From Marsupella aquatica (Eukaryota; Plantae; Marchantiophyta): DNA of 64,000 nucleotides. Below are positions 29,160 through 64,000 of the stretch, piece by piece. The stretch covers positions 23,163,455 through 23,227,454 of the forward strand of contig OZ316897.1 in NCBI GenBank assembly GCA_973895155.1, read 5' to 3'. A program made the translations under genes and the position numbers. Below the pieces are notes generated by a model. The model was given only the letters and a program-made list of their open reading frames with translations, was not told the origin of the DNA and made no database searches. Position 1 is the first letter of the stretch; each line of letters starts with the position of its first letter.

Positions 29160-30650
29160 AATTAGCTCTACTCAAGTTAGATAGGATAGTTAGGTTAGCC
29201 AAACTTGGGTTAGCTATGTAACTTGGGTTAGCACAACAATGAGTACCCCCACTCGGTTGTGGGGGCATAACTTTTTGTATTTGACCAAATGGCTATAATT
29301 GACCTTGTTGGAAAGAGGAGCTCAACCCGCTTCCAATGCTGCTATCCATGCAGCAAATGGTTGGATAGAGAAATCGGAAGAGGAGGCGCAAGCTCGCAAA
29401 AACTATGGAGGAGGGCCAAATCCAAAGTACACAGCCAATTCAAGATAGAAATAAAGCTGCAAGTTAGGGTTCTCTAGTTAAAGATAGTGGCGGCTTTGTT
29501 AGGGCTAGGATGGGGCTCCAACAACGTAGCATCCACCCATTTGAGCTCAATGTGAGAGTATATCTATAGCAGCCCCCCCCCCCCGTAGAGGCAAGGGGGA
29601 GACTTCAGTTGTGTGATCTCACATAGACTGAGCAACAGGGAGGAGCTCTGTGCAAGGAAGGCTAGGCTTGAAAGCTGTGTGTTGGGGAGAGCTTGGTGTG
29701 CTATTACTCAGGGAGTAATCAGTCACGCTTCACAACAATAATTGGCCAGGTTTGCAAGTTGGATTGTGGCTCTTTCTAGTACGCAACACAAGTGGGTTCT
29801 TTTCCCTGATACAAAGCCTTGGTGATAGGTGATGTGTTGGTGATTGTAAACTGTGGGGAGGATTTCAATTCAATTTGTGGTGAGCACATTAGGGAGGCTG
29901 AGACACTAATTGAGGGGCAACAGGAGGAGCATTTACAGTTCAGTCTAGCAAGGCTACGTGATCCATGGGGAGTCCAGGCCTTTTTTTGGTAGAGAGCACT
30001 AAGGGATTTATGGCCAGAGCTGAGCTTGCAGGGCAAGCATGAGGCCGGGCCTCATTGCAATTTGGGGTAGATTGCCGTTAGGCCTGGTACCAGCTTTGAA
30101 GTTAGGTCAACTGTGCATATGTAACTTGACATTCTGAAATGGGGGTGTGAGATCTGTATGTGCCCCCAAGAATGAAGCGTAGTGAAGGAGTTGAGTTCAA
30201 GATTGAGTTTACAAGGCAAGTACGGGATTGGTTTGAGTCCAATCTGCTGTCGCAATCTGGAGTGAGTCGGGCTCAAGTTTAGGATTGAGCTTGCATGGCA
30301 AGCACGGGGCTTGCGGGGCAAGCACGTCGCAATCTGGAGTAGACAGCCTTTGGGCCTATTTTTTGGATCGACTGTTCTCAATGAACTATTGTGTACATCT
30401 TTGAATCTAATTGAGTTTTCCTCTCACGCCTCATTTCTCTCATTTCTCTCATGGATGTGTGTGTGTGAGGCAATTTGAGTGTATGATGGGACTAGCATCA
30501 CCACTGAGAGATGTACCGGGTGCATTGAAGTGGGATGAGTGAGGGCTGTCATAGCTCTGATTGCTGAGAGTGGAATGGCAGAGTGGTGGGGCAATGGCTT
30601 AAAAGTCCCTAAGCCATGAATGAGTCAGGAGTCACTAGTTTATGGGTACA
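29160..30650 (+). mobile_element. LTR-like repeat (family C), inverted paralog of 50736-52215, truncated by the CACTA end
   Basis: Reverse complement aligns continuously with 50736-52215; the ORF-track peptides of both copies are near-identical. Confidence 0.75.
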
Positions 30651-35240: not shown

Positions 35241-37817
35241 TCACCAGTAATCACCACAAGAACACATTCCATCTCTAAAATGGTGGAACCGATTTGCATC
35301 CCTCGCAATAATCTCGCGTCCGGTCACCTTAGAAATATACTTGGTTGCTGAGTGGCAATCCGAACACACCCGAAGGTTCTTACTTACACGAATTGGTTCT
35401 CCCCAAGGTAGGTGCATAAGTCCGTAAACAATAGCCAACTTCTCACTATGAGAGCAAAGAGCTAGCTCTTTATCCTCCTCATTGATATCATGCAACACAA
35501 GCCGGGTATCGGGAATGTAGCCTCCAGCCTTAAGTTTTTCACTCAATTTATTCAGCTCAGTATATATCACCTTCGCTTCTGGGTGAGATGTATCCCCCAC
35601 AACAAATTCATGAATCTTGTTATCAACTTCAATCCAGCTACGCCCTGGCTCCTTCCGAACACCTCTCTCTTGCATCATAGTCCGCACAGATGACACCTTC
35701 TCCCACTTCCCAGCCGCAGCATAGATATTGGAGAGCAGCACATATGTAGAGGCCTTACTGGGTTCCAACTTGAAAAGCTCGTTAGCGGCCAGTTCGCCCA
35801 GCTCCACATTACCGTAAGTTCTACAAGCCCCAAGCAAGGCTGTCCAAGTTACATAATCTGGTTCGATCGGCATCTCACTGATGAGCTGCTTTGCTTCTTC
35901 CACGTGTCCCGCCCGCCCAAGAATATCCACCATGAGGGTATAGTGAAAAACAGTACGCTCGATACCATAATCTTGCGTCATGGCAGAAAAGATTCTACGG
36001 CCATCATCAACAAGGCCTCCATGAGAACAGGCTGACAACACAGCTGTGAATGACGTCTCGATGGGCTTCACATGGTCTGCATTCATTTGTCTGAAAAGTT
36101 CCAGGGCTTCCTGCCCATATCCGTGTTGTGCAAGTCCACCGATCATTATGTTCCATGTGACTACATCGCGTTTCTCCATTCTGTTAAAAACAAGTCTGGC
36201 GTCAGCTATACTGCCACTCTCTGCATACATGTGAACCAGTGCACTGCCCACACGCAAATCTGAGTCCAGTCCCGCTTTGCTAGCATGGCCATGAACCTCC
36301 TTCACCCACTCTAAAGACCCCGCACCTGCATTCAGAATACTCGCATAAGTGAATGCATCTGGTTCAAAGCCTTCCCGTCTCATTTGGATAAACAAGCGAT
36401 ATGCTTCATGCCCACATCCATGTTGTGCAAGTCCTCCTATCATTACATTCCATGTGACTACATCGCGTTTCTCCATTCTGTTAAACACCAGTCGGGCATC
36501 ATCTATACTCCCAGTCTTCGCATACATGTGAACGAGTGCAATGCCCACACGCAAATCTGAGTCCAGTCTCGCTTTGCTAGCATGGCCATGAATTTCCTTC
36601 ACCCATTCCAAAGCCCCCTCACTTGCAGATGCATTCAGGATGCTCACATAAGTGATTGTATTTGGTTCGAAGCCTTCACGTCTCATTTGTAGAAACAGGA
36701 GATACGCTTCCACACCATCACCACATTCTGCACATGCTCCAATCATAACATTCCATGTAATGACATTTCGATTTGTCAACTTTTCAAAAACTTTCCTTGC
36801 CTCGGTGATACAGCCACATTTTGCGTACATCAGTACGAGAGCAGTCCCTACACGCACGTCCGATTCAAAGCCGGCCTGTCGAATATGCTCATGAATTTCT
36901 TTTCCGCACCTTAGAGCTAACGGACTGGCACATCCTTTCAGGATGCTCAGATACGTGATCTCATTCGGCTGGACGCCTTCTTGGCGCATTAGATTGAAAA
37001 TTTCGAGTGCAGATTCAAAATGTTCACTCGTAGCGTACCCTGCAATCATGTTGGTCCAAGTAATAACACTCTTCTTCTGAATTTGATCAAAAACTCTACG
37101 TGCATCCGATAATCCTCCGCATTTGATATACACATTCAACAGCGTGATTACCACATATGAATTCTTATCACTCCCACTCTCGATGATGCAATCATGAATT
37201 TGCTTGGCTGCTGAAAGATCTTTCTGATGCAAGAGCATTTGCAGAAGTTTAACATAGGTGTACGGGTCTATAGCAATGCCTCGTTGCAAACGATCTTTCA
37301 AACCAGCAAGTGTTCCACTCGTTGTACCAGGAGCGTGCATATGCCTATTGCCGTTCCCTTCTGCAGTGACTTGAGACCGATCTCTCGTGCAATAACTAAC
37401 ATTAGATGGAAATCTGCAATGAGTAACCAAATTCGCCCTTGCCTTAACCCACGCTGGGGTTGACCAGCCATCCACCCAAAGTGCTAGTCTTGTCAACTTC
37501 TGATTGAACTCAGGTGCTCTGGGCTTCCTCTGTCAGCACCACAACCCACGATCAGATCTGCTACCAGGATAATATCCAGGAGATTCCACGAGGTGCAATG
37601 AATTTGTAGTTATTTCTTGACGACTATGTTTCCAGTGATCTTTCTACAATGAGTGTTCAGAAATGGATAGCAGACCGGTAAGCCTCTCGAGTTCTAGGGT
37701 GCATTCCTACCTCCGTCCAAAGATGTATTTTCTTGTCTCCCTTGCTCTGCTGTGATCTTTGGTACAGATAACTTGCAAAAGTTAAATGACTCCTTTCCAA
37801 CTGAGAGTAACGGCTAT
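35241..37817 (-). CDS. PLS-class PPR protein with E1/E2/DYW deaminase (organellar C-to-U editing factor). Main exon 37529-35241, in-frame upstream exon 37817-37711 (tentative); start unresolved
   Basis: 14 PPR motifs (L-S-P triplets ending P2-L2-S2), PG box KEPGRSWIE, HSEKLA, KNLRVCSDCH and C-terminal CSCGDYW*; intact frame. Confidence 0.95.
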
Positions 37818-45382: not shown

Positions 45383-46078
45383 GTGGAAATGGGAAGTGTA
45401 CCCAAGAAACACCTTAGTATAGTTACAGAAATAAGAAAATATAAACAATTAAAGGTGACTATGGAACCCGAGCCGAGGCCGGAAGTAAGGACGCCAGGGG
45501 AGAGAACACAATTAGGGTTAGGGCACGATAAATGCCGGCGGCTAGGGGTCACCAACGGGAGAGAAACGCCGAGGAGGAGAGGGGTAAGGACCGCTCGTGA
45601 AGAGTTGTGGCTCATTTGCAGGCACGAACTGGGCAGACGACTACGGGCGGTGAACTACTATCAGCTGCTTAAGCACGCACTTGGGGGGGGAGCAGATACC
45701 GACTATCAACTCGATAAGGGTATGAGCAACGTCAATCAAGCGGCACATTTTTGGGGATGCCTGTTCGAACGGGCAACTGAGTACATTGGGACTTACGAGG
45801 ACGAAGAATCAGAGAGAGCAGCTCGAGAACGGCAGGAGCTCGCTCGATTGTGGGAGTTGCAGAAAGTTGCCTTCTTAGGAGGAGAACTCATCAAGGCCGA
45901 ATTCTTGTGGACTCCTACTACCAATCAACTCGACGACCTTCTGTTTTGCGAAGACAGAGTCGTCGGCATCCGCGAAGCCATCAAACGCTGCAACGACCTA
46001 CACTGGGAGTTGAAGGTAGCACGGAGGGGTGAACAAAGGCAACCGTGCTCGGAGAGACATCCATGGCAGCCGAGATGA
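45383..46078 (+). CDS. LTR-encoded ORF1 (231 aa), homologous to the N-terminal domain of ORF 62817-60157
   Basis: AAHFW..ER..LFCEDRVVGIREAIKRCND aligns with AIRFW..ER..FFNGDKYIGFWEALLRLPD. Confidence 0.6.
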   Translation: MEMGSVPKKHLSIVTEIRKYKQLKVTMEPEPRPEVRTPGERTQLGLGHDKCRRLGVTNGRETPRRRGVRTAREELWLICRHELGRRLRAVNYYQLLKHALGGGADTDYQLDKGMSNVNQAAHFWGCLFERATEYIGTYEDEESERAARERQELARLWELQKVAFLGGELIKAEFLWTPTTNQLDDLLFCEDRVVGIREAIKRCNDLHWELKVARRGEQRQPCSERHPWQPR

Positions 46079-49000
46079 AGAGGAAGGGAATTAACAATGA
46101 CGAGGCCACCCCGGCAAAAAGAACGAGGTCGGCAGCACCAAAGAAACCAGCCGAACAGCAGAGTAGGAGGCAGAGAGAAGCCGAGGAGGAGGAGGTCGAC
46201 CCCATCAACGCCATTCCAACGAGAGATGACACCTGGAAAGGCTGGGCGGCGATCCTCCCCGAGGAGGTCCAATTACACTTTGCAAGAGAAGAAGATGCAT
46301 GCTTTACGGCTATGCAGACTCGGAAATATCAGGGCTTCATGGCCGGATCCGGCTTGGAAGCCTTCGTAAGGTTACCGTGGCTGAAGCCGGAGGTGCCGAA
46401 TTCAGACTTACTTGAATTCGTGGGATCATGGGAGTCCGAGACCAATTCCACAAGGGTGTATGGGAAGGAATTCTATCTTACTCCCCAGGTGATTGCCGAA
46501 GTATTTGGCTTGCCGATGGGCAATAAGACCAAGGTAGATACCAGGAAGACCTTGCCAGACACGGAGTTCAGGTCGTTTCCAGGGCCTTCAACAAAGAATG
46601 GTTTTTTCCGTAACACTTGCACCAACCCGCATATAGGAGAGATGATCGATTTCTTGCGGGTGACCATGCATTGCAACTGGCCGAGAGCAGAGATCGGCAA
46701 GGCACAGGTCTATCTGGTAGAGAGGCCAGACCCAAGCCGGGACTACAACGGTTACCTCCTCACTCAACTAAAGAAGATCTTGAAGGAGGAACAGCTGGTG
46801 ATCGGCAAGGGAAGCGTGTCCTGGTTGGGCTATCACATGCCGCTATTGTGCCGGTATGCCCGAAGTAAGACCTTTGCCCCGGTACTTCCCCTACAGGCAA
46901 GGGCACCAGAGGAGGTTTTGGAACAGAGGCCGGCAACAGAGAAACCTAAACCACCCGACAGTCCTACAATCGAGCAGGTATTTAGGCCAAGGACAGAGGA
47001 CTTGCCGATGCAGCAACCAGGCATGCAGAATCTATTGAAACTGCTGGAGAAAGAAAAGAGAACGGCTACGGCAACAACAACAACAATGGCAACGGCAACG
47101 ACAACAATACAGGACACTGCTCCAGAGGTAGGCCTAAACCGGCTTACAAGGGAAAACCCCTTTACTGGAGTCAAGGAGAGAAGGAGGCCGGAACACGAGC
47201 CGGGAGTCCGGATGTATGTAGGAGCCTCTAGTCCCGAAGCCGAAGAGAAGCAGGCCGTAGCTCCCGGCCCCGACAAGGAGAACAAGAGATCAACACGGAA
47301 GCCGGAAGAGGAACCAAGACCGGCAAGAGGTGAAGCCGTGTTCACAACAAAATCAGGAGAACAGCGGGAGAAGCCGGTAGTCCAAGCCGAGGAGGAGGCG
47401 GTGGAGGACTACAGCAATGATAACTCCGGCTACGGGTCGGATCATCATGTTCCAGGAGTAAGGACATGTGGCCGGTTTATCCCCACACTCCCAAGAGTAG
47501 TCCGAGGGGACCCGAGCCAGCAGAGCAGCCCCGAGTCTCCCCCGCCAGATGTCGCTCCCCCAAGCTTTGACGGCATAAAACAGACGGCGCAGGAATTTCA
47601 GGAGCGAATGAGGGAGGAAGAGGAGGCAGCCCTGGCTAGGGAGAAGGATTTACCAGGAGGAGAATGGCCAAAGAACATCAGGCGGCTTGCAGAAAAACGA
47701 AGCAACCCTCCGGCCACGATAGAGGAGATCCGCAAGGCGGCTTGGGAACAAAGGCCGCGGTGGATGATGCCGATGACTTCTACTTCCTCCACCTATGCTA
47801 AAAATAGAGCCATGGAGTACGGGGAGATGTGTGGAGAACTAGCGCTCAGCATCTTTGGGGAGGAGTTGGAGCAGGGACCCTTTTTCCAGAGGGAGATGTT
47901 GGAGAAGCGCCATTTAGAAGAAGCGGTGGCCTTGGAAAGAAGCAAGAAGGACGAGGTCATCCATCGGCTTAGGGAAAGGGAAGCCAAAATCGAGGACCTA
48001 AGGGCGGCCAAGAAAGCCCAAGATGAGCTGCGGATTAAGCGGCATGAGCTAAATATCATGCAGGGCCAGTTGGATACCGCACAGTATGATAATCGGATGA
48101 TCAAGAATCTATTGACGCGGACCCAAGGAGAGTTGGCCGATGCGATCAAGGAGCGGGAGAAGTGGAAGCGAGAGCTGAGGAATGCAGAGGAGGCCCACAT
48201 AACAGCCAACAACCGGGCCATGGCGGAGACCCAGAGAAGGGAAAGGGCGTTGAAGGGGGAGCTCGAGGTTATCCGTGGAGCCCTTAAGCAAAAGGAGGCT
48301 GAGTTAGGGAAATCCTATCAAGGGATTATTGCACTGCAGCAGGAACTTGCGTCCCTGATGGCCAGCTTCAAGGCCGACCTACGGGAGAAGGATGACCAGC
48401 TCGACCAGACTTATGCCAAGATGAATAAAATGGAGTCTGAGGTCGTAACGGAGCTCGACAAAGAGCTAAGAGAAACCCAGGAGGAGAGGGCTACCTTGAA
48501 GAAGGAATTGGAGGAAGCCCAAAGGGAGCTGGAGGAAGCCCAGAAAGAACTGGAGGAGGCGCGTAAGGACCTGGACGAAGTGCAGGAGGAGTTGGAGGAA
48601 AGCACGCGGAAGCTGGAGAACTTACAACGGCGAGCCGACAACCAAACGGAGCGGCTGAAGAAACAAGCCGCAGTAATTAAAGGCTTGGCTCCATCAGGCC
48701 CAACTCCAATTGGGGCAACCAAGTTACCAGGAGTGGTACTGGCCGAAGAACAAGCCGCGCCACTTGCACCAGTGCCGGAAGTAAGTGGGAAGGGGAAGGG
48801 ACCAGCTGCCGAACCAGAAAAGAAGAAGAAGCGGAAACCTTCAGGGTCAAGGAGTAATACGGCTCCACAGGCCGTGGTGACCCAGGAGGCAGACCCAGCA
48901 CCGACCCCAGGCAGGGTCACGGCAGAGGATCCAACTACCCTAGAAGCAGGGGATGACGAAGCCGTGGCTGATGCCGAAGCCGGTGCCGAGGCCAAAGCCG

Positions 49001-49134
49001 AAGGTGGACCCAGTCAGGCCGATGGAGAGTTGACTAAGTCCAGGGCAGGTAATCTGTCAAAGAACGAACCTACGGCAGTGGCTGAGGAGGAAGCGTTGGG
49101 GGCGTCCACTGAGGAACAGACACCGCTGCCATGA
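46045..49134 (+). CDS. LTR-encoded ORF2 (1029 aa): plant-transposon-like globular domain, low-complexity linker, long coiled coil, NLS-like KKKKRK
   Basis: Uninterrupted 3.1 kb ORF; LPW..EFV..LT..FGLP.G..SFP..NGF...C..EI..AQV shared with ORF 60403-62190; heptads KELEEAQRELEEAQKELEEA. Confidence 0.8.
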   Translation: MLGETSMAAEMKRKGINNDEATPAKRTRSAAPKKPAEQQSRRQREAEEEEVDPINAIPTRDDTWKGWAAILPEEVQLHFAREEDACFTAMQTRKYQGFMAGSGLEAFVRLPWLKPEVPNSDLLEFVGSWESETNSTRVYGKEFYLTPQVIAEVFGLPMGNKTKVDTRKTLPDTEFRSFPGPSTKNGFFRNTCTNPHIGEMIDFLRVTMHCNWPRAEIGKAQVYLVERPDPSRDYNGYLLTQLKKILKEEQLVIGKGSVSWLGYHMPLLCRYARSKTFAPVLPLQARAPEEVLEQRPATEKPKPPDSPTIEQVFRPRTEDLPMQQPGMQNLLKLLEKEKRTATATTTTMATATTTIQDTAPEVGLNRLTRENPFTGVKERRRPEHEPGVRMYVGASSPEAEEKQAVAPGPDKENKRSTRKPEEEPRPARGEAVFTTKSGEQREKPVVQAEEEAVEDYSNDNSGYGSDHHVPGVRTCGRFIPTLPRVVRGDPSQQSSPESPPPDVAPPSFDGIKQTAQEFQERMREEEEAALAREKDLPGGEWPKNIRRLAEKRSNPPATIEEIRKAAWEQRPRWMMPMTSTSSTYAKNRAMEYGEMCGELALSIFGEELEQGPFFQREMLEKRHLEEAVALERSKKDEVIHRLREREAKIEDLRAAKKAQDELRIKRHELNIMQGQLDTAQYDNRMIKNLLTRTQGELADAIKEREKWKRELRNAEEAHITANNRAMAETQRRERALKGELEVIRGALKQKEAELGKSYQGIIALQQELASLMASFKADLREKDDQLDQTYAKMNKMESEVVTELDKELRETQEERATLKKELEEAQRELEEAQKELEEARKDLDEVQEELEESTRKLENLQRRADNQTERLKKQAAVIKGLAPSGPTPIGATKLPGVVLAEEQAAPLAPVPEVSGKGKGPAAEPEKKKKRKPSGSRSNTAPQAVVTQEADPAPTPGRVTAEDPTTLEAGDDEAVADAEAGAEAKAEGGPSQADGELTKSRAGNLSKNEPTAVAEEEALGASTEEQTPLP

Positions 49135-50075: not shown

Positions 50076-50121
50076 CATTTCTTAAGCCGTGACATATGAA
50101 GTTAGGAAGGAAGCGTAGGTA

Positions 50122-50724
50122 ATGACTGAACCTACGCCGAGGGAGGAAAGAGCGATTCAACGGGAGAGAACTCGTCTGCAGCAACTCGCCGGGTGGCATG
50201 ATACACAGCGACTGAGAGGGGCAGAAAGAGCTAGTAGCTCCGTAACTGAAAGTGGCATCGAAGAAGACATACCAGAAGAAGGGTCGGTAAGGAGAAGTGA
50301 GTCTCCAACCGACATGGGGGAACCAGAGGCACGGCCAGACGAGAGGCCAGGGACCAAATTGAGCCAACGGTCACGTATTCATTACAAGGCCTTTCATGGA
50401 AGAGGAGATGAGGATCCGGACGAATGGTTGGATGACTTTGAAGGAACTGCTGCAGCAAATGGAGAATCGGCCATCAAGATGCAGATTCTTCCCGACCTAT
50501 TCAAAGGTGAGGCTAGGCCTTGGTACAGAGCCTTGGACGTGGAAGATCAAGCCATATGGCATACTTTCAGATCACTATTTGTCAAGGAGTTTCGACCCAT
50601 TGGAACTTCAGAGTTAGCAGTGCTGAAGTTGGGACGACTTTGGTTCAAGGAGAACAAATCCTTCAGGAAGTTCTTGCAATGCTTCCAAAAGCTGAGAATG
50701 CCCGAATGCACGCAAACAAGGTGA
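50122..50724 (+). pseudogene. gag: Truncated Ty3/Gypsy gag
   Basis: YKAFHGRGDEDPDEWLDDFE..FKGEARPWY..WHTFRSLFVKEF (retrotransposon gag signature); cut off at ~50700 by an unrelated LTR. Confidence 0.85.
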
Positions 50725-50735
50725 TGGACAACCAG

Positions 50736-52561
50736 GTACCCATAAACCAGTGACTCTTGACTGATTCCCGGCTTAGGGACTTCTAAGCCATTGCCCCACC
50801 ACTCTGCCATTCCACTCTCAGCAATCAGAGCTATGACAGTCCTCACCCAGCCCGCTTCAATGCACCCTGTACACCTCTCAGTGGCGCTGCTAGTCCCATC
50901 ATACACTTAGATTGCCTCACACACACACACATCCATGAGAGAAATGAGGCCTGAGAGGAAAACTCAATTAGATTCAACGATGTGCACAATACTTCACTGA
51001 GAACACTTGATCCGAACAATAGGCCCGAAGGCTGTCTACTCCAGATTGCAGCGTGCTTGCCCCGCAAGCCCCATGCTTGCCATGCAAGCTCAATCCTAAA
51101 CCTGAGCCCGGCTCACTCCAGATTGCGACGGCATATTGGACTCAAACCAATCCCGTACTTGCCTTGCAAACTCAATCCTGAACTCAACCTCCTTCATTGC
51201 ACTTCATTCTTGGGGGCACATACAGATCTCACACCTCCAATTCAGAACGTCAAGTTACGCATACATAGTTGACTCGACTTCAAAGCTGGTACCAGGCCTA
51301 ACGGCGATCTACCCCAGACTGCAATGAGGCCCGGCCTCACGCTTGCCCTGCAAGCTCCGCTCTGGCCATAGATCCCTTAGTGCTCTCCACCAGACAAAGG
51401 CCGGGACTCCCCATGGATCACGTAGCCTTGCCAGACTGAACTGTAAATGCTCCTCCTGCTGCCCCTCAATCAGTGTCTCAGCCTCCCTAATGTGCTCACC
51501 ACAAATCAAATTGACATCCTCCCCACAGTTTACAATCACCAATACATCACCTATCACCAAGGCTCTGTATCGGGGGAAAAGAACCCAGTTGTGCTACTCA
51601 CTAGAAAGAGCCACAATCCAGCTCGCAAACCTAGCAACCCGTTGCTGTGAAGCTTGGCTGATTACTCCCTGAGTAATAGCACAACCAAGCTCTCCCCAAC
51701 ACGCAGCGTCCAAGTCCAGCCTTGCTTGCACAGAGCTCCTCCCTGCTGCTCAGTCTAAGTGAGATCACACAACTGAAGTCCTCCCCCTATCTCTACCGGG
51801 GGGCTGCTCTATATACTCTCATACTGAGCCCAAATGGCTGGGTACTACGCTGTTGGAGCCCCATCCCAGCCCTAACAGAGCCGCCACTATCTCTAACTAC
51901 TGAACCCTAACTCGCAGCTTTATTTCTATCTCGAATTGGCTATGTACTTCGGATTTGGCCCTCCTCCATGGTTTTCGCGAGCTTACGCCTCCTCTCCCGA
52001 TTTCTGTATTCAACCATTTGCTGCGTGGATAGCAGCGTTGGAAGCGGCTTGAGCTCCTCTTTCCAACGAGGTCAATTATAGCCGATTTGGTCAAATACAC
52101 AGAGAGTTATGCCCCCGCAACCGAGAGGGGGTACTCACTGCTGCGCTAACCCGAGTTACATAGCTAACCCGAGTTCGGCTAACCTAGCTATCCTATCTAA
52201 CCCGAGTAGAGCTAACCCGTGGTCTCGGGTTAGGCCGCTACACGCTATCCGCTAACCTAGCCTAAGCTGAGCCCGAACCCGAGCTTACCTATGCTAACCT
52301 GAGCCTGAGTTTAGGCTAACCCGAGTTCAATCTAATCCGAACCTAGGTTAAGCCTAAGCTGAAGCTGTGCTGACCTAAGCTAAGCTGAAGCCGTGCTTAC
52401 CTTAGCTAAGCTGAAGCCGTGCTCACCTGAGCTAAGCTGAAGCCGTGCTTACCTGAGCTAAGCTGAAGCCGTGCTCACATAAGCTAAGCCGTGGTCGAGC
52501 TTGGGTTAACCCAAAACTGAAGCCGAATCCGCTAATTCCGGCCACAAGTTAACCCGTCACA
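50736..52561 (-). mobile_element. LTR-like repeat (family C) with ~26-bp tandem repeats at ~52350-52490
   Basis: Minus strand starts TGTGACGGG at 52561 (cf. TGTGACGCC of the other LTRs); GCTAAGCTGAAGCCGTGCTCACCTGA units; TATA-like GTATATAGAG near 51810; paralog at 29160-30650. Confidence 0.7.
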
Positions 52562-52627
52562 CTAATCAGGCCGTATCTCTCTTAATACACCTCCGTTTCC
52601 CGAGTGTTTTATATCGATTTTACTCGC

Positions 52628-55600
52628 CTAATTTATGAAGAGCGCTTAGGACATTCAGTACAAGGTAACCCGGATGGACAGTTATCATCACAACAATGGT
52701 GGGATTCCGTGGTAGCTCTACTATGTATTGGAAGAGTACCAAAATCTCTGCTTCGGTCCACTCCTTCTGTTGAAGTCGGCTGAAATCAACAATTGCAAGA
52801 GGGCATGTTGGAGATTGTTCTTCCAACGACTCTGGATCGACTGTCTTCATTAGGTTGTTACTAAAAAATGTGACCCACGGTTGGGTCCAAGAACTTGTCC
52901 CCCCACCAAACTTCTGACAGTAAATATCATCTAGACGCATCACCAATGTCATTGGCAATATCTCACTCTCCTTTGTATGATTAGACTTCAATAAATTTGT
53001 CAACCATACTTCACCAGCCGCTCTTCGGCACCTGTTCAACTCCGACTCGACACCTAACAATGGGAGGACCTCAATTACTTTAACCCAATCACTATCTGCT
53101 GGGAAGTTTTTTGGATCCTTCTTGAAGTAGTAATCTCCAATAAGAGACTTCAGTTTGATCAATATCTTCACCTCCTTTGCAAAGTCCTCCATTGCTGGAA
53201 CATCTGACTTATTTGTCGGATCCTTCTTCAATAAAACCTGACCTGACTTCACCTTGCTCAAAATTTTGGTCAAATCTCTATTTGAGATTTTACCATCAAA
53301 ACAATGAAACATTGCGACTGTTATTGCCTTTTCAGACCTTTTGTTTCCTTGTGTACCAGCTCCATCAGGAAGATTTCCATCAATCCACATCTGGCACACT
53401 AACTGCCATAACTCAAAAAGATCATTCTGGGCAAAAAGCAACCAGTATACATTTTTCAAGGCTTTTCTCCCCATGGTCATCCTTGCCAGTGCTAAATAAT
53501 CCTGCAATCAAAAATTGGGGGGAATGTTATGAGTTATCTAAATAAACCAAAAGTCACACTCTTGGACAGAGACCATCTCCATCCAAGTCAAAACCAAAAG
53601 TAGAATGAAGTAAAATCTCTAGAACGGACGGTCACACTCTTGGACAGAGACCATCTCCATCCAAGTCAAAACCAAAAGTAGAATGAAGTAAAATCTTTGA
53701 AACGGACGGTCTCACTCTTGGACAGAGACCATCTCCATCCAAGTCATAACCAAAAGTAGAAGGAAGAGAAATCTCTGGAATGGACGATGACACTCTTGGA
53801 CAGAGATCATCTCCATCCAAGTCATAACCAAAAGTAGAAGGAAGAGAAATCTCTAGAATGGACGATCACACTCTTGGACAGAGACCATCTCCATCCAAGT
53901 CATAACCAAAAGTAGAAGGAAGAGAAATCTCTAGAATGGACGATCACACTCTTGGACAGAGACCATCTCCATCCAAGTCATAACCAGAAATATATTGAAC
54001 TAAAATCAGTGTAACGGACGGTCACACTCTTGGACAGAGACCATCTCTGTCCAAACAAGAAAAGTGTTTCTCACCTGAAATTTTTGATTCTCTTGGGCGT
54101 TTGACTTGTTGTCCCCGTGCTTTGGCTTTCTTGGTCCTCCGCATTCAAGGAATTGTTTCCTTGCATGAACAATTGTATCTTTGAAGCACGATTGAAACAC
54201 CATCATCGAATTGATGGCATTTGATCTCATTGAGTGCTCAACCAATATAGCCGATGGTGTAAGGTCTGACAATAATCTAGACTTCCTGTATTTTAACTTT
54301 TTTGCCAACACTGTGAGCTTGGCATCAGTTTTGGCCCATTCGAGAACCCACTTGGCCGCCCTAGCTGAATGTTGCCCACTGATGGCAAAGAAACCAATCT
54401 CGCCTTTCTTCACTCCTGCAAGAAAGTCTTTGCGGTCGTTCTCCGTGCTGTCAAAATGGAGCAACTTTCTAAGCTTCAGACTATAAGGAAGCAGGTCCGT
54501 GACGTGAGGTTCATGTCCGGGGTTTTTGACCATGGATTTGGCTATGTGCTTCACATGGGTACTACTGAGCATCCTGTAACATAATCTTGCAGGTGCAGGC
54601 ACAATTTTCTCCACTGGAATAGAAAACAGTTCATTTATCCCAAAAGTATAGTACTGCTCTATTCTCTGGAGAACATCATTTCCTTCTAAGACCTTCTTCT
54701 CCTCAGGGGCATCAAGTTTGTCTCCCTCATCTTCTGGGAGCATCTGTACGTCCGCAGGGGTTGACCGCAAAAGAGACTTGTCAGTTTTCTGTTTCTTCGC
54801 TACTGGCTTCTTCTCGGGTTCCTTCGGCAATGTCTCAATTTTCTCGCGACCCTTCCTCTCTCTTAGTCTTCGCTTCCCTACCACTTGTTTGGTGCTTGTC
54901 CCAGCCGTTGTTCCTGCAGTCCTTGTTGTTGTCTCCTGAGATATTTTTCTAGGTTTGGGAACTTCTTTGGGAACTTCTTTGTTAACAACTACTGGAAGCT
55001 CGTTCACCACTACTGGTGCAACATTTGTAGGCTTGGGTAATGATTCTACCCACTTTTTTGCATTGTCCATCGCAAACTCCTCTGCAAATGCAATTTGCTT
55101 GTCAAGGCAAACACCTGATTCCGAAGATAGGAATCCTGCCTTGTCAAGCAAATTATTTAAAATCCATGTCACCGGAAATGTATAATTCCCTTGGTGTTTA
55201 TGGATATTCAGCTTCACATATTGGAACCCATACATGATGTCAAGTGGAAGAATCCCCTTCACTCCAACAATCACCTTTTGAGTTGAATACAACTTAGGGA
55301 AAAAGCCCATTGCCATCACGCCAAGTTCTCCAGCAGCAGACCACTCAACATTGAACTCTGAAGAATACGCCTTTGATGGTAGATGTAGCTTAACCCATCG
55401 TATCCTTTCATGGAGCTCAAGAATGATGGAAACAAACCCTCTTCCTTCAATTCCAATGAAGACTACAGGTCTGAGTACAAGAGTCTCTTGATCTTCTGTT
55501 CTGACCTTTATGCACAAAATGGGATCCCGTCTCTCTGACGTGCTAAGGAAATCAAAATCAACTCTAGAGAACTCAAGGCCCCAACGAAAATCTGGTTTTC

Positions 55601-55691
55601 TCTGCTCCAACAAGACTCCCTCGGAGCAATCTGATTCTAAAATTGCTGGTTTCAATCCATTTAGATCGCTCCCTGCAATAGTCCCATCCAT
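52628..55691 (-). CDS. ParB/Sulfiredoxin-like domain protein. Exons 55691-54075 and 53501-52628; 3' part probably lost to the LTR stack
   Basis: SIPVEKIVPAP..YRMLSSTHVKHIAKSM..FFAISGQHSARAAK matches the ParB N-terminal fold pattern. Phase-0 GT-AG intron 54074-53502 joins KFQ|DYLA. Possible AG|GCGAGT donor at 52627; otherwise stop at 52620-52622. Confidence 0.65.
53555..54052. repeat. 78-bp tandem repeat (7 palindromic cores) filling the intron of the ParB-like gene
   Basis: Units begin at 53555, 53633, 53711, 53789, 53867, 53945 and 54023; core TTGGACAGAGA-CCA-TCTC(CA/TG)TCCAA. Confidence 0.92.
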
Positions 55692-55749
55692 GCATATTAG
55701 TTTGGAAAATCATAATTTGTAATCGACAAAGATGAGGTTCTCTCACAGT

Positions 55750-56262
55750 TTGGACAGAGATGATCCCTATCCAATTGGACAGGGATGATCTCTATCCTCT
55801 ACTTGGATAGGGATGATCTCTGTCCAATTTGTAACAAAGATAATCTTTGTTCGATCAAAGGATTTTGACAATCTTTATTAGGAATTGGACAGGGATGATC
55901 TCTATCCTCTACTTGGATAGAGATGATCTCTGTCCAATTCCTAATAAAGATCATCTTTGTTCGATCAGAGGATACTGACGATCTTTATTAGGAATTGGAC
56001 AGGGATCATCTCTATCCTCTACTTGGATAGGGATCATCTCTATCCAATTCCAAATTAAGATCCTCAGCATCCTCTGATAGAACAGTTTTGATCCTCTGGT
56101 TGGACATCCTCTATCGTCATTTTGGAAATAGATGATCCCTATCCAATTGGACAGGGATGATCTCTGTCCTCAGTTTGGACAGAGATCATCTCTATCCAAT
56201 TCCTAATAAAGATCACTATCTTCTACTTGGACTCTACTTGGACAGGGATGATCTCTGTCCAC
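55750..56262. repeat. Cluster of ~11 palindromic GGA(C/T)AG(G/A)GAT-N-ATC(C/T)CT(G/A)TCC sites upstream of the ParB-like gene
   Basis: Repeated TTGGACAGGGATGATCTCTATCC, often in pairs within a ~110-bp higher-order unit. Confidence 0.88.
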
Positions 56263-57311
56263 TGCACAAATATTCAACTTGTTACCGAGATACTTACTTG
56301 GATTGAGCAATTGGAAGGCTCTGGAATCCTCGAGGGCCGTGTCTACCACATCCTCAATGGAGGAGAGGTCTATCTCCTCTGTTGGCTCAACGACCAAAGA
56401 CACTTGAATAGGTCTAGATGGATCCATCTTGTGACACGTGGTCGTATGGACACGTGGAGGATCATAGAGCGTTAGATCTAGGGCAATTAACGTGGCGGCT
56501 AGGGCAGAAACTCTAGTGTGAAGGCGGAGGTGGAGTGGGGCCTAAGGAGACTGGAAGCGAATGAGGCGGAGGAGTGGAGGAGCGGAGGCGCAGGAGCGAA
56601 GAAGAGGAGCGAAGAAGAGGAGGAGGGAAGAAGAATGAGGCCCAAGTGGGACCTCTTGCCTCCTTTACCCCCCCCCACACCAAGGCGAGGCAAGGCCAAC
56701 TCAACACGTGGGAGGCCGAGCTGCAAACCCTAAACGCAAGGCTGCGTAAATTGTGCCGCCCGACTTGGTTGTGTGGCGTGGATGACCTAATCCACTCGAC
56801 CCTAAACTCCGCCGCTGCTTAAGGCTGATCACGCATCGCCTTATCCGTAAGAGCGATCTTGAATGGTATAAGATACTTGGGCTGCTCCGGTTGGTCCTCA
56901 TTTGGTATTTTCATGTCTAGATTTTCATTCAGTGTCTCAACCAGGTCCGTTCATTACGGAGCCCCATTGAGCCACTCTTGTTTTCTAGACAGAACATCTA
57001 GTTTTAATTTCTTCCACACCCCTGAAGCATTTAGTTTACCAGCTTACTGAGAACTACCCCTTCAACAAAGTATTTTATTACTTGGTTTGACAACATAAAC
57101 TAAGTGAGTTTTGTGTTCAAGAATCATTTCCAGTACAGGTAACTTTCAACTTAATTATAGAATATTCCATTGGTATCAAATTTAGGAATTGTATATCTAA
57201 GTTACTTAAGGTTGGGGTATCCAGCCCAACTCACGATTGGGATCATCTCAATCGAACCTTTCTTTGGTCAAACATTAAATTAGTGTGTAGAGGTTAATTG
57301 TCCGTACAAGG

Positions 57312-58280
57312 GTCTGTCCACCGTTTGGATAGGGATGATCTCTGTGCACCGTTTGGATGGGGATGATCTCTGTCCACCGTTTGGATAGAGATGATCCCTG
57401 TCCGGCTTTTGGATAGAGATGATCCCTATCCACCATTTGGATAAGGATGATCCCTGTCCACCGTTTGGATAGCGATGATCCCTGTCCACCATTTGGATAG
57501 CGATGATCCCTGTCCACCATTTGGATAGGGATGATCCCTGTCCGCCATTTGGATAGAGATGATCCCTGTCCACCGTTTGGATCGAGATGATCCCTGTCCA
57601 CCGTTTGGATAGCGATGATCCCTGTCCCCCGTTTGGATAGAGATGATCCCTGTCCACCATTTGGATGGGGATGATCCCCGTCCGCCATTTGGATAGAGAT
57701 GATCCCTGTCCACCGTTTGGATGGGGATGATCATGTTCGGCTTTTGGATAGAGATGATCCCTGTCCACCATTTGGATGGGGATGATCCCTGTCCGCCATT
57801 GGATAGGGATGATCCCTGTCTGCCATTTGGATAGGGATGATCATTGTCCGCCGTTTGAGGTATTTGCTTTATGGGACCCCAATATGAAAGGTTTTACTTT
57901 CAGATAGGACCGCTGAGTGATCCTAAGTGATCCGGACCTTGAATCATCCATGTCTATTGTTTGGACAGTGATAGACCCTATCCGCCATTTGGACAGGGAT
58001 CAGCTGTGTCCACCATTTGGACAATGACAGACCCTATCCACCGTTCTGATAGGGATCATCTCTGTCCGGATTTTGGATAGGGATGATCCCTGTCCGCCGT
58101 TTATAGGGATCATCTATGTCCATTGTTTGGACAGTGATAGAACCTATCTGCCGTCTGGACAGGGATCATCCCTACCGACCGTCTAAATAGGGATCAGGGA
58201 TCAGGGATCAGGGATCTTAGGGCTAGATAAGGATTGTTTAGGGACCTATTATTTTGCTTGATGGGGATGATCCCTATTTG
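57312..58280. repeat. ~28-bp tandem array (~19 units to 57850, then ~9 diverged units) of the same palindrome
   Basis: TTTGGATAG(G/A/C)GATGATCCCTGTCCACC(G/A) repeated head-to-tail. Confidence 0.93.
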
Positions 58281-58383
58281 CGCACTGTCCTTGGATGGGG
58301 TTCACACCTATCTGCTTCCTAGTTGGGACCATTGTTAACTAATACCTTACATTTCAAATTGTGCAGGTGAACACGTTGTAGGA

Positions 58384-61300
58384 ATGACCGGAATATTTTT
58401 GAGAGGAGACAATGTGATATTGACAATTGGTGGTTACGATGTTGCAAGCGGGACAGTTCAAAAAATCAACCCGCAAGATAGTGTTCAAAAGATATTGTTG
58501 AGAGAGAATCGAATGGGCGTTCTCATTGAGAAAGTTTTTGACCGAACCACAAAACTACCATTTCCAATGCCTCGGGCAGAAAACCTTTTTGATGCCATTG
58601 ATTCTTGCGTTATTTGGGATTTGTCTTGCGCATATCTATCAACGATAACAAATTCTCAAAAACGCATTAGTGTAGGTAGTTGTTCAAATCGACCGGAGAG
58701 TAATTTGGAAAAAAATCCAATTGTAGAGGAGGACTCATCGACCACTCTGAGGCAAGGGGATGAGGTTGAAATGTTCATCTTTGGGTGTTGTGTAGCCCTT
58801 GGAGTTGTTTTCAATACAAATCCAATGGAAAGATGTCACAACATTTTACTTGGTGAATCACGGATCAGTGTGAGGGTCACTGATGTCATTCATGGGAGTA
58901 GGGTTTTACCTTACAAACACAACAGGGTTGAAACAATTGACGAAGCAAAAGACTCATGGGTTCTCTGGGATGTGGCAGATGTCCGAAGTAGAAAGAGTTT
59001 CTCAAAGAAGGATGCGGGCGATGATATCAACATAGAGCGGAGTTTTGTTGCGGAGTCTCCCTCAGCTGAAATTTCTAAAACTAATTGTGACTATTTCCAA
59101 CGGTCAAATTGGATGTCAGAGTTGGTCGAACTATACATCGGTTCAGATCGAACCAATAGGGTTGCCACGGGGACCATCACTGTGCCTCAAGAAACGGCGG
59201 TGGTTGACGATGAAATCCTTGGTGAGGACCATGTAGGGATTGCTGTGAAAGATGTGGTGTGTCACGTCGTAGGCTTCCGCCTTAACTCAGACTTCAGCTT
59301 AGACGGGCACATCCCTCGTAAATCTGAGGGTTCGGGCAGGAAGGGAAGCACGTAATGCACCTTATTCTCGTAAACTAGCGCTAAGTGCGCATACTGCTAA
59401 ATACGGACACCTCCTAGGTATGGTTTGTGTTCCGCCGCCGGAACGTACCTTAGTCGATAGCAGGATCGACCCCGGCTTAAGGGCTTCTAAGCCTTCGTGC
59501 TGTCCGCCTTCAATCCGGATTCGATGATACAGGTCCTCAACCCGTGCTCGCAACCACTTACCTGCAGGCTGCACCTTGTGCACGTCTCGGGTAGTGCGTT
59601 CGGCCTGGCGCTGCCACCCATATACGAGAAACCCACACACATATGCGCACACATGCATACAATCTCGATTTACACGAAGGAAAATGATGGGAAAGGATTT
59701 TACTACAAAGGGAACATATGCGTACACTTAGTTGACACGACAGCCCTGGAATGCACAGGTTCAAGGCCGAGGGTGCACACTACAACGGAGCCCGGCTCCG
59801 CACTCGCCCGACGAGCTTAGTCCTATCCCCTCCCCTTGGTACTCTGTCATTCCCAGAGGTCGGGACTCCCCGCATGTCCCGCGGATGTCCGACTCTGAAA
59901 CTAAAAACCCCCCCTGCCTCTACCGAGGGGTGCACTAAATACTAAGAGCCGAGGGACGGGGTGTCCTCTCGCCGAAGATTCGCTGACTAAGGTCCTAACT
60001 AAGCTGACAGTCAGGCCGGAAAACGGCTGTGTCTTATTAGAAGATCCTAATCTACGCAGGCTGGACAGCAGGGCAGCGCTGCTGTACCTAAGGCAGGTGC
60101 CTGTCCCAAGAGCCTGACTAAGCCAATCCTAATCCTAATCTATTCCTACTCTGCCGCTAATGCCTGGCACGCTTGCCAGAGCCACCCGAATGGGAACGGC
60201 CATCCCGCTGCCTTCCAAGCCTGTCATTGTCCGCTTTGAGGAGCTGGACCTGGTCTAGCAGAGATTCGTTCTCTCGCCTCGCCGCGTCCGTCTCCTCTAC
60301 TGCCTCCTGACATGCCTCCTCCAGCTGCTGGGCGTCGCTCGTCAGTTTACCCGCCAGCTGGTCCTGCTTCTCGTCCTCGGTTTGGAGCCGCGCCATCTCG
60401 GCCTACAGCGTGGCTATCTCCGTCGCATCCCGCTGGGCTCGCTCCTCGGCCTCCTCCAGGTCTTTCTGCCAGGTGACAGCTTGTTTCTTCAAATTATCAA
60501 TCTGGTTCCGGAGTCGTGTAATCTCGGCCTCGTTCCCAGCTTTGGCCTGTTCGGCTAGGGCGGTAAGAGCGTACGCCTTTGCTAATAACTCATCGGCGGC
60601 TGCAACCTTGGGTCGTAGTTGCAGAAGCTCAGCCTCTTGAGCCGCCACTTCGTTCTTTAGGTACACGGACTCCACCCGGTACCGCTCTATCCTCTGAAGG
60701 GCCTCCGACTGGGCCCGACCTGCCTTTACGGCGGCAACCAACTCCTGATTGAAGAAACAGGCTACCTTCCGGGCCATGAACTCCCCGGTATCTCGGGCAA
60801 TTTGATGAGAGAAATCTCCCAGAAGCCCGTTCAGAAACGTACCCTGTACGAAGAGTTCCGGGTGGTCCAAGTTGTGCCTGTCCGGATTTGGGCACGGGCA
60901 AACATCAACACGCGCAGGGGCCGAGGCAGTGACGTCCAGCCCTGGGGACATAACGTTGGAAGGGGCTGGAGTGTCCTCCTGCAGCGATGTCCGGTTCTCC
61001 GGAATTGCCACCGGCGGGTCCTTGGGAGACCCGGGTTCGGGTAAGACCTCTGCCGTACCAACTTCTGTACTTAGCCCGGCTAGTTGGGTCGCATCAACGG
61101 TTGCGACGACCGACCCCTCCGGCGCCTCCTCGGTTACGATTACAACTATTTGTGGAGGTGGGGTGGGTGAAGCTGGCATGTCCACTGGACTTCGGGCCTC
61201 GGGTTGGGGCCGTCTCTCCAATGCCGGAAAAACCCACCTAGCTGGGACCAGCTTTGTAACGTTGATGCGGGGAAGGGTTCGTCGATCAAACCGGGCGTAC

Positions 61301-64000
61301 CACTCAAGAATGATTTCGATGTGGCTAGCAAAATACGCCTTCCCGCCAATGTACAGCATCTTCCTTCGTCGCTCCATCTCTTCATGGAATTTCTTAGCGA
61401 AGTACGACGCCCATTTCCTAGGTCGATAGTTCTCGACCTGGATAACCTGGGCGGCGGAGATCTCCCCCCGGGGTTCCATCATGTGGAGAGCGTACCTCTG
61501 GAACTCCAGCCGCTCAGCTATCTCGGGCATGAGGCAGGTCCTCATCACGAACCCGTTGTCTACTGATCCCTCTGAGGGAAAACTTGAAGATTGGTACTTG
61601 GCCCCCTTGCCCCCGGGAGCCCGTGATTCGACTCGATGGTCACCTTCGGGTAACCCGAAGATCATCTTGAGCCGTTCTTCTGTGAGGGACATATTCCTTC
61701 CCCGCAGCCGAGTCTGTTGACGTACGTCGTCATAATTCTTGACGAATTCTGTCATGTCCTCCCCGTAGTACCTGCAAGTGTTCCAGGGGAGAGAGGTGAG
61801 GTGCTCAAATCCCTGAGTCTTCAGGTACACCGCATGCTTGGGATGGAGGATGTTGCTATGAACGTTTTCTCCCATGCGATGCATCGTCACCTTGGCTACG
61901 GCTACCGTGGCCAACGGTAACCCGGACGCAGTGGCGGATTCCTTCCTCTTCTTTCCCCGTGACTGACTCGGGGAAGGTGATACTTCCCCATCCTCCCGAT
62001 CGGGCCTGGGGAGTGCCACTACGGTTGGTAACGGGCCCGGGGCGGCCACGATCACTATGTTGTCTGCTGGGGCCGCTCTTGGGGTCAGAGCAGGGGGTGG
62101 GGACGATATAGTGTCGGCCCCCCGAGCGCTTGTTCCTCTGGGCCGCCTGGTCAAGGGTGGGGTAGCCTCGTCGTCATCGCTAAGATCCACAGCGTTGATG
62201 ACGGAGCGTACCTGTGCTGGCTAGGTGATAGGTGGTGGGGTTTGGCTAGGCTGCGGCTGAGGCTGAGGCTAAAGCTGAAGCTGAGGTTGAGGCTGGGGTT
62301 GCATGGGCACGGGTACGGGTACGGGTACGGGCCCGACTGAGTTGGTCATGTTGGTTGATGGCCGAGTTCCCATGAAGCTCTGCAAGTGCTGGTAGAAGTT
62401 CTCCGAAGCGAGTGCGGACGCCCTTGTCGAACGGTTGGTACTGGACTCGCCGTTAATGACAGCCCGAACCTGGGCAGGGATGTGGTCGAAGTGATGTCGC
62501 TGCAGGTCGATTGTACCCGGGATATTGAAGACCTCGTCCGGAAGCCGAAGCAATGCTTCCCAGAACCCGATATATTTGTCTCCGTTGAAGAAGTACCCAG
62601 ATACCTCAGCTGGTCGGTAAAGCTCGCTCTGAGACGGGTAGTCAAAGTTAAGGACGTAGTGGTGTCGTCCTGCTAGGCGGATGGCTCTCTCGTATTCGCG
62701 TTCGATCTCGTATCGGCGCGGGTTGGCGTGTTTCAATGAATCGGCCAAGTGCCTTCCGGTAGATAGGAACTGCGTCCAGAATCGAATGGCCGAGCTGGAG
62801 AGGATCGTGTGCGACATTCAGAGGAGATAGTAGTGGCGACCTAGAGAGAACGAGAGAGTTGGGGTCGAAGCTGGCGCGCGGACTGATGGACTGGTGCACT
62901 ACAAAGGGTTGGCTCCCCTTTTATACTTTGAGGGCTTGTCAATCCCCGACGTCTCCTCGACGCCCATAGGTTGAACCGCTCACGCTTGTGGTGTACCGGC
63001 CACTCCGTCGGTCTGAGTCAGCGTGCGTCAGTGGCCGCTTCCTTGAGTTCGTTATACGGACCCGAGGGAGGGGCCCCTCCACGCTCGTAATCCGGGTGTG
63101 CGAATAGCGACCCGCCGCCAGCCTGAACCTGAAGTCCCCCTTATTGCCTAATGATGTCCTACCCCTAATGATTACCTAAATACTGTCGTTATGCTAATAA
63201 TAGCGGCCTAAGACCCACCTAACGCGCATGCCGAGCGCAGTTAGACTGAATCACTCATTAACCGCCGTACCGGCGGCGTCACATGGTGGAATCACAATAC
63301 TTTCCCAATTTCCATAGGGGAGTAATTACTTTGGTTCGGTGGTGGATTGATTCAACAAAACTACTTGCAAACGGGAAATTTTTGTCGGACATTTTGGTTG
63401 AAGGTTCAGAGAGGATGGAGACGGTGGATAGGGATGATCTCTATCCAAATGTAAATGATAGGGGAATGCCGCGCACAAGGCCATACAATTTCAACAAGAG
63501 GACTCATGTAGATCCGATTGAAAAGAAGAGAAGGTTGTTGGAAACCAAAGCAGTTTCAAAAACAACGGAAGCTTCGATTGATGAAATTAAAAGAGAGAAT
63601 TGTTGCAAGCAGAAATGTTGTCTGACTATGCCAAGAGAAGACATAGACGATATCCGGATAGAATTTCACGGGATGTCTAGCGAGTCAAAAACATCACACA
63701 TTTTCAACCTCTTCCACTACAGAGAAGATGATGTTCGTGATAAGGGGCAACATGTTCTCAAGGGTATGGTCGTATGTAGACATGCATTTGCAATCATCCA
63801 TGGCTTTAGCCACACGAAATATTATGATTACAAAAGGAGATATGTGGAGGGTTGCAAAATTGGGTTCCATGGAAACACGGGCTCCATGAAAACAAGGTCA
63901 AATACCTTGCATGCACGAGCTCTGTTGGAGGATTTTTTGACTCGAAATGCAGAGCCCATGCCTCATATACCTTATGCTGGGGCTCATGGGACAAACTCCA
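58384..64000 (+). CDS. DNA transposase-like gene (three Tnp1/En/Spm-like beta domains + Sola-like N-terminal region), interrupted by the solo LTR at 59260-63283; runs off the window
   Basis: Removing the LTR and one TSD restores the frame (..KDVV|ESQYF..), open to 64000. Motifs CCKQKCC, VCRHAFAIIHGFS, HGNTG, ARALLEDFLTRNAEPMP; three VA.G..LG....V.V..V repeats; acceptor at 58366. Confidence 0.6.
60157..62817 (-). pseudogene. LTR-encoded gene, 887 codons in one frame with three TAG stops
   Basis: ORFs 62269-62817, 60403-62190 and 60157-60396 are in one frame; stops at 62269, 62221 and 60403 lie in Gln-compatible contexts (CAG>TAG); homologous to ORFs 45383-49134. Confidence 0.8.
62918..62925 (-). 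promoter_or_regulatory. TATA box of the LTR-internal gene
   Basis: TATAAAAG ~100 nt upstream of the ATG at 62817; conserved in the copy at ~23879-23886. Confidence 0.55.

Follow-up and report, generated by a model that had tools for sequence, protein, structure and literature searches.

A predicted ParB-like protein and family-specific palindromes in a likely DNA transposon of the liverwort Marsupella aquatica

Introduction

Why would a plant repeat carry a gene for a ParB-like protein among dozens of copies of a single palindrome? The question is raised by a 64-kb stretch of the Marsupella aquatica genome (contig OZ316897.1, positions 23,163,455 to 23,227,454; hereafter the window), whose right-hand part contains two head-to-head genes, a spliced minus-strand gene whose product has a predicted ParB-like fold and a plus-strand gene possibly encoding a transposase. 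An earlier sequence-only reading of this DNA had taken the pair for part of a transposon and the palindromes for counterparts of the parS sites at which bacterial ParB loads. The computational analysis presented here indicates that the gene pair is a damaged copy of a likely DNA transposon, with the minus-strand gene as a likely accessory gene. We put at about one half the probability that gene and palindromes form a self-recognition module, with the ParB-like protein binding the palindromes of its own family and probably keeping the element active. The wider claim that the minus-strand protein is what binds the palindromes, be it in this way, as a fixed regulator or as an active methylase, appears considerably safer, and we regard it as probable. 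Both genes were found as many variant contigs, as would be the case for a repeat family; the element's ends lie outside the window or have been lost, and the term transposon is therefore used only as the likely one.

Results and discussion

Palindromic sites cluster in and between the two genes

The palindrome has the consensus GGAYAGRGAT-S-ATCYCTRTCC, flanked mostly by TT and A. The consensus proposed in the sequence-only reading has 34 matches at up to three mismatches, against 0.01 expected, a count reached in none of 100 shuffles. With the degenerate consensus GGAYAGRGATNATCYCTRTCC, the 64-kb window contains 19 exact matches, rising to 31, 41, 43, and 46 at up to one, two, three, and four mismatches, respectively. 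All but one of these 46 fall within positions 53564-63446, the sole outlier being a copy with four mismatches at 18097; the number of sites given previously (about 45 around both genes) and the placement of one of them inside the plus-strand coding sequence, near 63426, were thus confirmed. Seven of the 45 lie in intron 2 and 11 in intron 1 of the ParB-like gene, 26 are intergenic, and one (63426-63446) is in the plus-strand open reading frame (ORF; Table 1). The intergenic array combines a 28-bp tandem (19.5 copies) with a looser array. As the contexts in which the palindrome is embedded (78-bp, 110-bp, and 28-bp units, and coding sequence) are mutually unrelated, it appears to have been amplified several separate times.

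The site is slightly asymmetric: positions 4/18 form a Watson-Crick pair in seven of 43 sites, with T-G in 22 and C-A in 13. These mismatches fit better with a site read as duplex than with a hairpin, bearing in mind that tandem copies are not independent of each other. An Rfam search gave no match.

The palindrome changes with the gene and keeps its place in distant relatives

Eight loci (L001-L008) were obtained in a scan with a distant subfamily, at 25-30% identity to the domain encoded in the window. The co-occurrence and co-variation of palindrome and gene, which had been put forward as a check of the earlier proposal, are both evident in them. Loci L001-L007 each contain repeated palindromes of 22-26 bp, with the half-sites CTTCCTCTCG (L001 and L002), GTTTCTCTCG (L003), CTTCCAGTCG (L004), GTTCCACTCG (L005), and CTTCCACTCG (L006 and L007), and L008 contains one palindrome, unrelated to the others. 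In all eight, a palindrome occurs in the intron directly after the ParB exon, which is the position of intron 2 in the window, and palindromes are also found upstream in the six loci having upstream DNA. Their density amounts to 11.4 per kb in the post-ParB intron and upstream region, compared with 1.6 per kb elsewhere in these loci and 1.8 per kb in positions 1-52626 of the window. Five palindrome variants follow five protein subfamilies. Allowing one mismatch, none of the six motifs turns up outside its own loci; even with three mismatches allowed, the window motif has no match in the eight distant loci. In L001 and L007 the palindrome is also present in dispersed form, and in L005 the cognate motif is absent from the 7.2 kb downstream. 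These loci show linkage of the palindromes to the gene and turnover of their sequence, not which protein reads them. Nevertheless, since distant relatives have a different palindrome at the same places, the protein is likely to recognise the element that encodes it.

The minus-strand protein has a predicted ParB-like fold

Splice structures were predicted from GT-AG sites and homologs. The three exons of the minus-strand gene (Table 1) join in frame into 867 stop-free codons, and the ORF at 54006-55709 contains the motifs quoted in the sequence-only reading. Among named relatives, proteins of Calypogeia fissa come closest, with 59% identity over the ParB domain and 44% over exon 3; identity of exon 3 to the relative P0007 is 43-44%. 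A profile search returned 129 clusters at E ≤ 0.001, and the 20 that were looked up included eight from Riccia sorocarpa, one from Adiantum nelumboides, and one from Trichinella, the latter a chance match; two apparent chance hits (P0122 and P0129) were excluded from the alignments. Close-relative scans of metagenome and viral contigs gave no match, and no phage protein closely related to the family was found in the viral scans. Algal ParB proteins were absent from the 20 matches looked up. For green algae, work by Iyer from 2011 is reportedly the one cited.

The model of exon 2, with a predicted local distance difference test score (pLDDT) of 81.6, comprises a ParB/Srx domain preceded by a low-confidence linker and, at the N-terminus, a PH-like domain. 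Foldseek placed Noc and ParB at the top, with no match at E 0.001 or better, and a wide structure search ranked PadC, KorB, pNOB8 ParB, and SerK first. The relative P0001 (ParB domain and next 117 residues) was modelled at pLDDT 95 and a predicted template modelling score of 0.90, and this model matched Noc (7nfu) along its length at E 7.6e-4 and phage ParB proteins at E 3e-4. ParB chains were found at Z 9.0-9.9; the alignment with Caulobacter crescentus ParB (Z 9.1) has a root-mean-square deviation (rmsd) of 2.5 over 98 residues, and that with KorB (Z 7.8) an rmsd of 5.1 over 197 residues covering both domains. In a fold search of 48,161 chains, all eight rows at Z ≥ 5 belong to the ParB/Srx superfamily. 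Alignments with KorB, Noc, and Spo0J cover the confident helical region at rmsd 4.7-5.6. On these models, the fold is predicted to be ParB-like, as the sequence-only reading had proposed, with the helical region at the position of the DNA-binding domain. A homodimer prediction of P0001 scored 0.01, which says nothing for or against a dimer.

In an alignment of 91 rows, R36 is conserved in 96%, G102 in 93%, Q103 in 91%, H104 in 100%, and N154 in 98%. By motif order, R36 and N154 are putative equivalents of the Box I arginine and the Box III asparagine of ParB. The replacement of the GxxR motif by GQHS, seen earlier in the window protein, extends as GQH[S/T] to the whole family, and CTPase clamping is therefore only putative. 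A distant member (P0125, P0149) keeps GGNHR, that is, the canonical arginine.

The first 210 residues of exon 2 (54075-55672) form a confidently modelled domain whose fold resembles PH/PTB/FERM, at a Z of about 6 that falls in the chance range, and this domain is common to 13 stored proteins.

Full-length relatives end in a methyltransferase-like domain

Full-length relatives from liverworts and a fern end in a domain resembling beta-class N4/N6 methyltransferases, and three of them (P0059, P0086, and P0089) carry both the ParB-like and the methyltransferase-like domains. P0007 extends exon 3 of the window into this domain, most of which is missing from the window copy, cut before it. PF01555 was matched in P0007, P0008, P0059, P0086, and P0089 (E 2.6e-5 to 0.023), and the Atlas model of P0007 aligns with N6_N4 methyltransferases. 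The catalytic [DNS]PP[YFW] motif was found in none of 157 stored proteins and none of five translated exons, and an intact S-adenosylmethionine-binding FxGxG at motif I in none of 17 sequences checked, which read FFSGG or similar (DFFSGG, as against DFFAGSG in M.RsrI). Because both PP(Y/F) and FxGxG are missing, the sequences suggest that the domain is inactive.

A proposed self-recognition module and the points against it

In the proposed module, the ParB-like protein, with its predicted nucleotide domain and helical domain, would bind its own palindromes as a dimer through the helical domain, coat its own element and, by analogy with VANC of Arabidopsis transposons, probably keep it transcribed or unsilenced. 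Nucleotide-gated, ParB-like closure may let it spread out from the arrays, and the methyltransferase-like domain would serve as a dead module for DNA contact or dimerisation. After a new specificity had arisen, the matching site would be amplified in tandem, providing every family with a private tag. A more specific version is tentative, with the odds against it: transposon-borne ParB clamps of liverworts, ferns and related plants would load at family-private parS-like palindromes, slide by means of a GQH[S/T] nucleotide switch, and shield the element from silencing, with the dead methyltransferase as cargo. ParB-fold proteins bind CTP, ATP or GTP, a choice that is not predictable from sequence (PMC12704722).

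Several points weigh against these proposals. Predicted fold and sites alike come from sequence and models. The two-domain model is that of the relative P0001, in whose alignment six of 59 rows were misplaced; the Z values of 7-8 in the wide search are within reach of unrelated models, and the helical DNA-binding domain was never matched by itself. The GxxR arginine is present in one of 91 rows. Sequence searches of the window protein gave no ParB match in Pfam, no match in the PDB, and no ParB detection in PHROGs, and the Pfam family DndB was matched by three of 81 members only, at E of at least 0.03. Seven of the eight distant loci have the same contig-name prefix and stop close to their upstream arrays, so a co-varying transposase could sit just outside. 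The palindrome variants split along the protein tree, and a test of specificity residues did not separate co-evolution from kinship: one residue of the predicted helical domain varies in step with the sites, and so do four exon-2 columns (five of 245 variable columns). In the window, the densest array is closer to the plus-strand gene, and the single weak match of that gene is to a TNP1/EnSpm domain. Finally, in phage ParB-activated dioxygenases, mutations of nucleotide residues had little effect (PMC13229309), so that retention of the fold does not have to imply that the switch is retained as well.

Alternative explanations

The alternative that survives best, although we consider it unlikely, is that the ParB-like protein binds the palindromes just as a fixed operator-binding regulator, controlling the two divergent promoters with no nucleotide-gated sliding. 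The family-wide loss of the P-motif arginine, the clustering of sites at 5′ ends and in introns, with the cognate motif missing from 7.2 kb of downstream DNA in L005, and the description of DndB as a transcriptional repressor would all suit such a regulator, whereas the pocket candidates R36, H104, and N154 are kept at 96-100% and 45 sites exceed the need of an operator.

Slightly less likely still is that the palindromes are bound by the plus-strand protein, a transposase or TnpA-like protein comparable to those acting on CACTA subterminal repeats, and that the ParB-like gene only travels along. This would be consistent with the weak Transposase_23 (TNP1/EnSpm) match, with the location of 26 of the 45 sites in or just upstream of the candidate 5′ intron of the plus-strand gene and of one in its coding sequence, and with the eight distant loci, in which no transposase is within view and one may thus have escaped notice. 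Nevertheless, the sites are found deep within the element, both introns of the ParB-like gene included; each of the eight distant loci has a palindrome in its post-ParB intron; and algal ParB accessory genes switch between transposon superfamilies (bioRxiv 10.1101/2025.02.11.637652).

It is improbable that the full-length protein is an active N4-methylcytosine (4mC) or N6-methyladenine methyltransferase that the ParB part directs to the element encoding it. Such an activity has been proposed for the algal proteins (PMC12477816), PF01555 and the P0007 model point to the same enzyme family, and 4mC exists in Marchantia, where it is made by other enzymes; against it stands the complete lack of [DNS]PP[YFW] and FxGxG in the proteins and exons inspected.

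Two further explanations have very little in their favour. A role of the palindromes in transposition, with ParB-like bridging joining the ends or holding excised copies through division, draws on established functions of bacterial ParB and on nothing specific to this element, whose arrays are internal, whose ends are not within the window and in whose region no ParA-like ORF was noticed; the synapsis or segregation role suggested earlier thus found no backing here. Equally remote is that the palindromes are neutral minisatellites or intronic RNA hairpins: most window copies are indeed in tandem arrays, but the same motif recurs in unrelated units and in dispersed form (L001, L007), stem mismatches predominate at 4/18, Rfam gave no match, and placement persists between proteins of 25-30% identity although the palindrome sequence itself has been exchanged.

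Relation to known systems

Returning to the self-recognition module, proposals of this kind already exist for two algal elements. The accessory gene of Sola1-1_Ec32 of Ectocarpus encodes, opposite the transposase, a 1104-aa protein with ParB-like and N4/N6 methyltransferase domains, whose suggested role is to bind its own element and modify it (PMC12477816). By its description, it resembles the window family in combining both domains in one protein with an opposite-strand neighbour. The window family differs in its occurrence in land plants, the absent catalytic motif, the extra PH-like domain, and a neighbour whose transposase class is only putative. No palindromes are mentioned in the main text of the paper on Sola1-1. 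In the red-algal Plavaka (EnSpm) elements, PAG3 has a ParB-like N-terminal domain and adjacent tandem inverted-repeat arrays across families, for which self-binding was also proposed (bioRxiv 10.1101/2025.02.11.637652). The ParB-like domain beside inverted-repeat arrays is shared with the window family, whereas the effector of PAG3 is a 2-oxoglutarate oxygenase and the methylase a separate gene (PAG2); family-specific site sequences are not reported in the available text of the preprint, and its supplements may show them. The kind of system is therefore already known as a proposal.

Bacterial ParB-parS, Noc-NBS, and KorB-OB (PDB 6sdk, 7bnk, 7bm8, 7nfu, and 8qa9) resemble the window family in predicted fold and predicted domain order as well as in repeated palindromic sites; the window family departs from them in its GQH[S/T] in place of GxxR, its insertions, its methyltransferase-like tail, its longer sites (21-26 bp), and its spliced gene in a plant repeat. 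The same two domains occur together in phage ParB-N6_N4 methyltransferase fusions. VANC of the Arabidopsis VANDAL transposons, for which demethylation was shown and whose motifs have multiplied within introns and between genes (PMC5735166), is likewise a transposon accessory protein with family-specific motifs in tandem repeats; unlike the window family, it is an unrelated protein with non-palindromic motifs of 8-9 bp, and anti-silencing by the window family is only putative. In a survey of the ParB-CTPase fold from 2025, sulfiredoxin is given as the common eukaryotic representative (PMC12704722). As a lead, with no alignment behind it, a fungal DUF3723 cluster scores 0.93 with the ParB domain in the Atlas feature search.

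Our literature searches, whose coverage excluded the PAG3 supplements, found, for genes of this type, neither a land-plant family nor a dead methyltransferase nor family-specific sites. What appears to be new from the sequences of the window family and its relatives is thus the land-plant family itself, the apparently dead methyltransferase, and family-specific palindromes in the same placement. The six protein-site pairs, whose half-sites differ from one another either at 1-4 bases or entirely, make the algal self-binding proposal directly testable. If the module is real, it would be a second land-plant system of transposon self-recognition beside VANC, made from a prokaryotic clamp, and might offer programmable chromatin-targeting pairs; should the clamp version hold, it would represent a nucleotide-gated sliding clamp on plant chromatin with naturally orthogonal protein-site pairs.

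State of the window copy and neighbouring features

The head-to-head arrangement and the predicted splicing of the minus-strand gene agree with those described in the sequence-only reading, which had overlooked that both genes are interrupted, along with the PH-like and methyltransferase-like domains and the algal precedents. The minus-strand gene does not end at 52628 as assumed: at 52627 it abuts a high-copy retroelement-like block, where contigs from three of four sequencing runs diverge, and other copies continue. The remainder of the gene was not found in the 64-kb window.

The insertion in the plus-strand gene is flanked by a TGGTG target duplication, and the empty site is present in contigs from two of the four sequencing runs. 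Across it, the two parts are in frame over 544 stop-free codons, and the 63426 site therefore once lay about 170 bp after 59255. The description of this ORF as transposase-like agrees with a single Transposase_23 match (E 4.4e-4), which at 20.5 bits is below the Pfam cut-off of 21. For the C-terminal part, no homolog was found among 142 candidates of 416-2000 aa, nor in Pfam; its Cys/His spacing presumably resembles that of Sola-type transposases, and the catalytic core of the putative transposase would fall past 64000. From candidate splice sites, a 5′ intron is predicted at 57139-58366.

Table 1. Predicted features of the gene pair and its palindrome arrays (window coordinates).
Feature	Position	Strand	Description
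Exon 3, ParB-like gene	52627..53501	-	Helical region at position of ParB DNA-binding domain, more helices, first methyltransferase-like strand; cut at 52627
Intron 2 array	53553..54054		78-bp unit x6.4, 7 palindromes
Exon 2, ParB-like gene	54075..55672	-	PH-like domain, low-confidence linker, ParB/Srx-fold domain with R..GQHS..N
Intron 1 array	55752..56260		11 palindromes, 25-99 bp spacing
Predicted exon 1, ParB-like gene	56298..56427	-	43 codons; ATG and GTAAGT donor, phase fits exon 2
Intergenic array	57234..58313		26 palindromes, mostly 28-bp period; inside candidate 5′ intron of plus-strand gene
5′ part of plus-strand, possibly transposase ORF	58367..59259	+	Pfam Transposase_23, sub-threshold
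Unrelated insertion, 4024 bp	59260..63283		TG..CA ends, 5-bp target duplication
Continuation of plus-strand ORF	63284..64000	+	Cys/His-rich; leaves window; palindrome at 63426-63446

A variant copy of the 63426-63446 site has three changes, two of them non-synonymous and each yielding a base that other motif copies also have, and one contig contains a local duplication near this site with an additional degenerate site. The insertion ends in TGTCACG..CGTCACA, has no internal direct repeat and recurs in part at 23423-24245 (69%); it contains two minus-strand ORFs of 605 and 182 aa with no convincing Pfam match, and is possibly a very long solo long terminal repeat or a non-autonomous element.

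Among the relatives of the ParB-like gene, a NIF (FCP1/SCP-like) phosphatase domain is found downstream in L005 (6489-7304, E 1.5e-11) and another inside the predicted Adiantum protein P0108 (E 1.4e-8), which may point to additional cargo with a role in chromatin or transcription.

To the left of the 52627 cut, the retroelement-like block includes a 1033-aa coiled-coil ORF (46033-49134) and a Retrotrans_gag fragment (50119-50724, E 4.5e-6). Positions 50736-52215 have an inverted copy at 29162-30649 (89%), and a 26-bp tandem occupies 52349-52489. The host context further left comprises an aminotransferase-domain exon (4362-5630, E 8e-7), a kinase-like ORF (11608-12354, E 2.5e-5), and an intact-looking PPR gene (35241-37532) that, by eye, ends in DYW.

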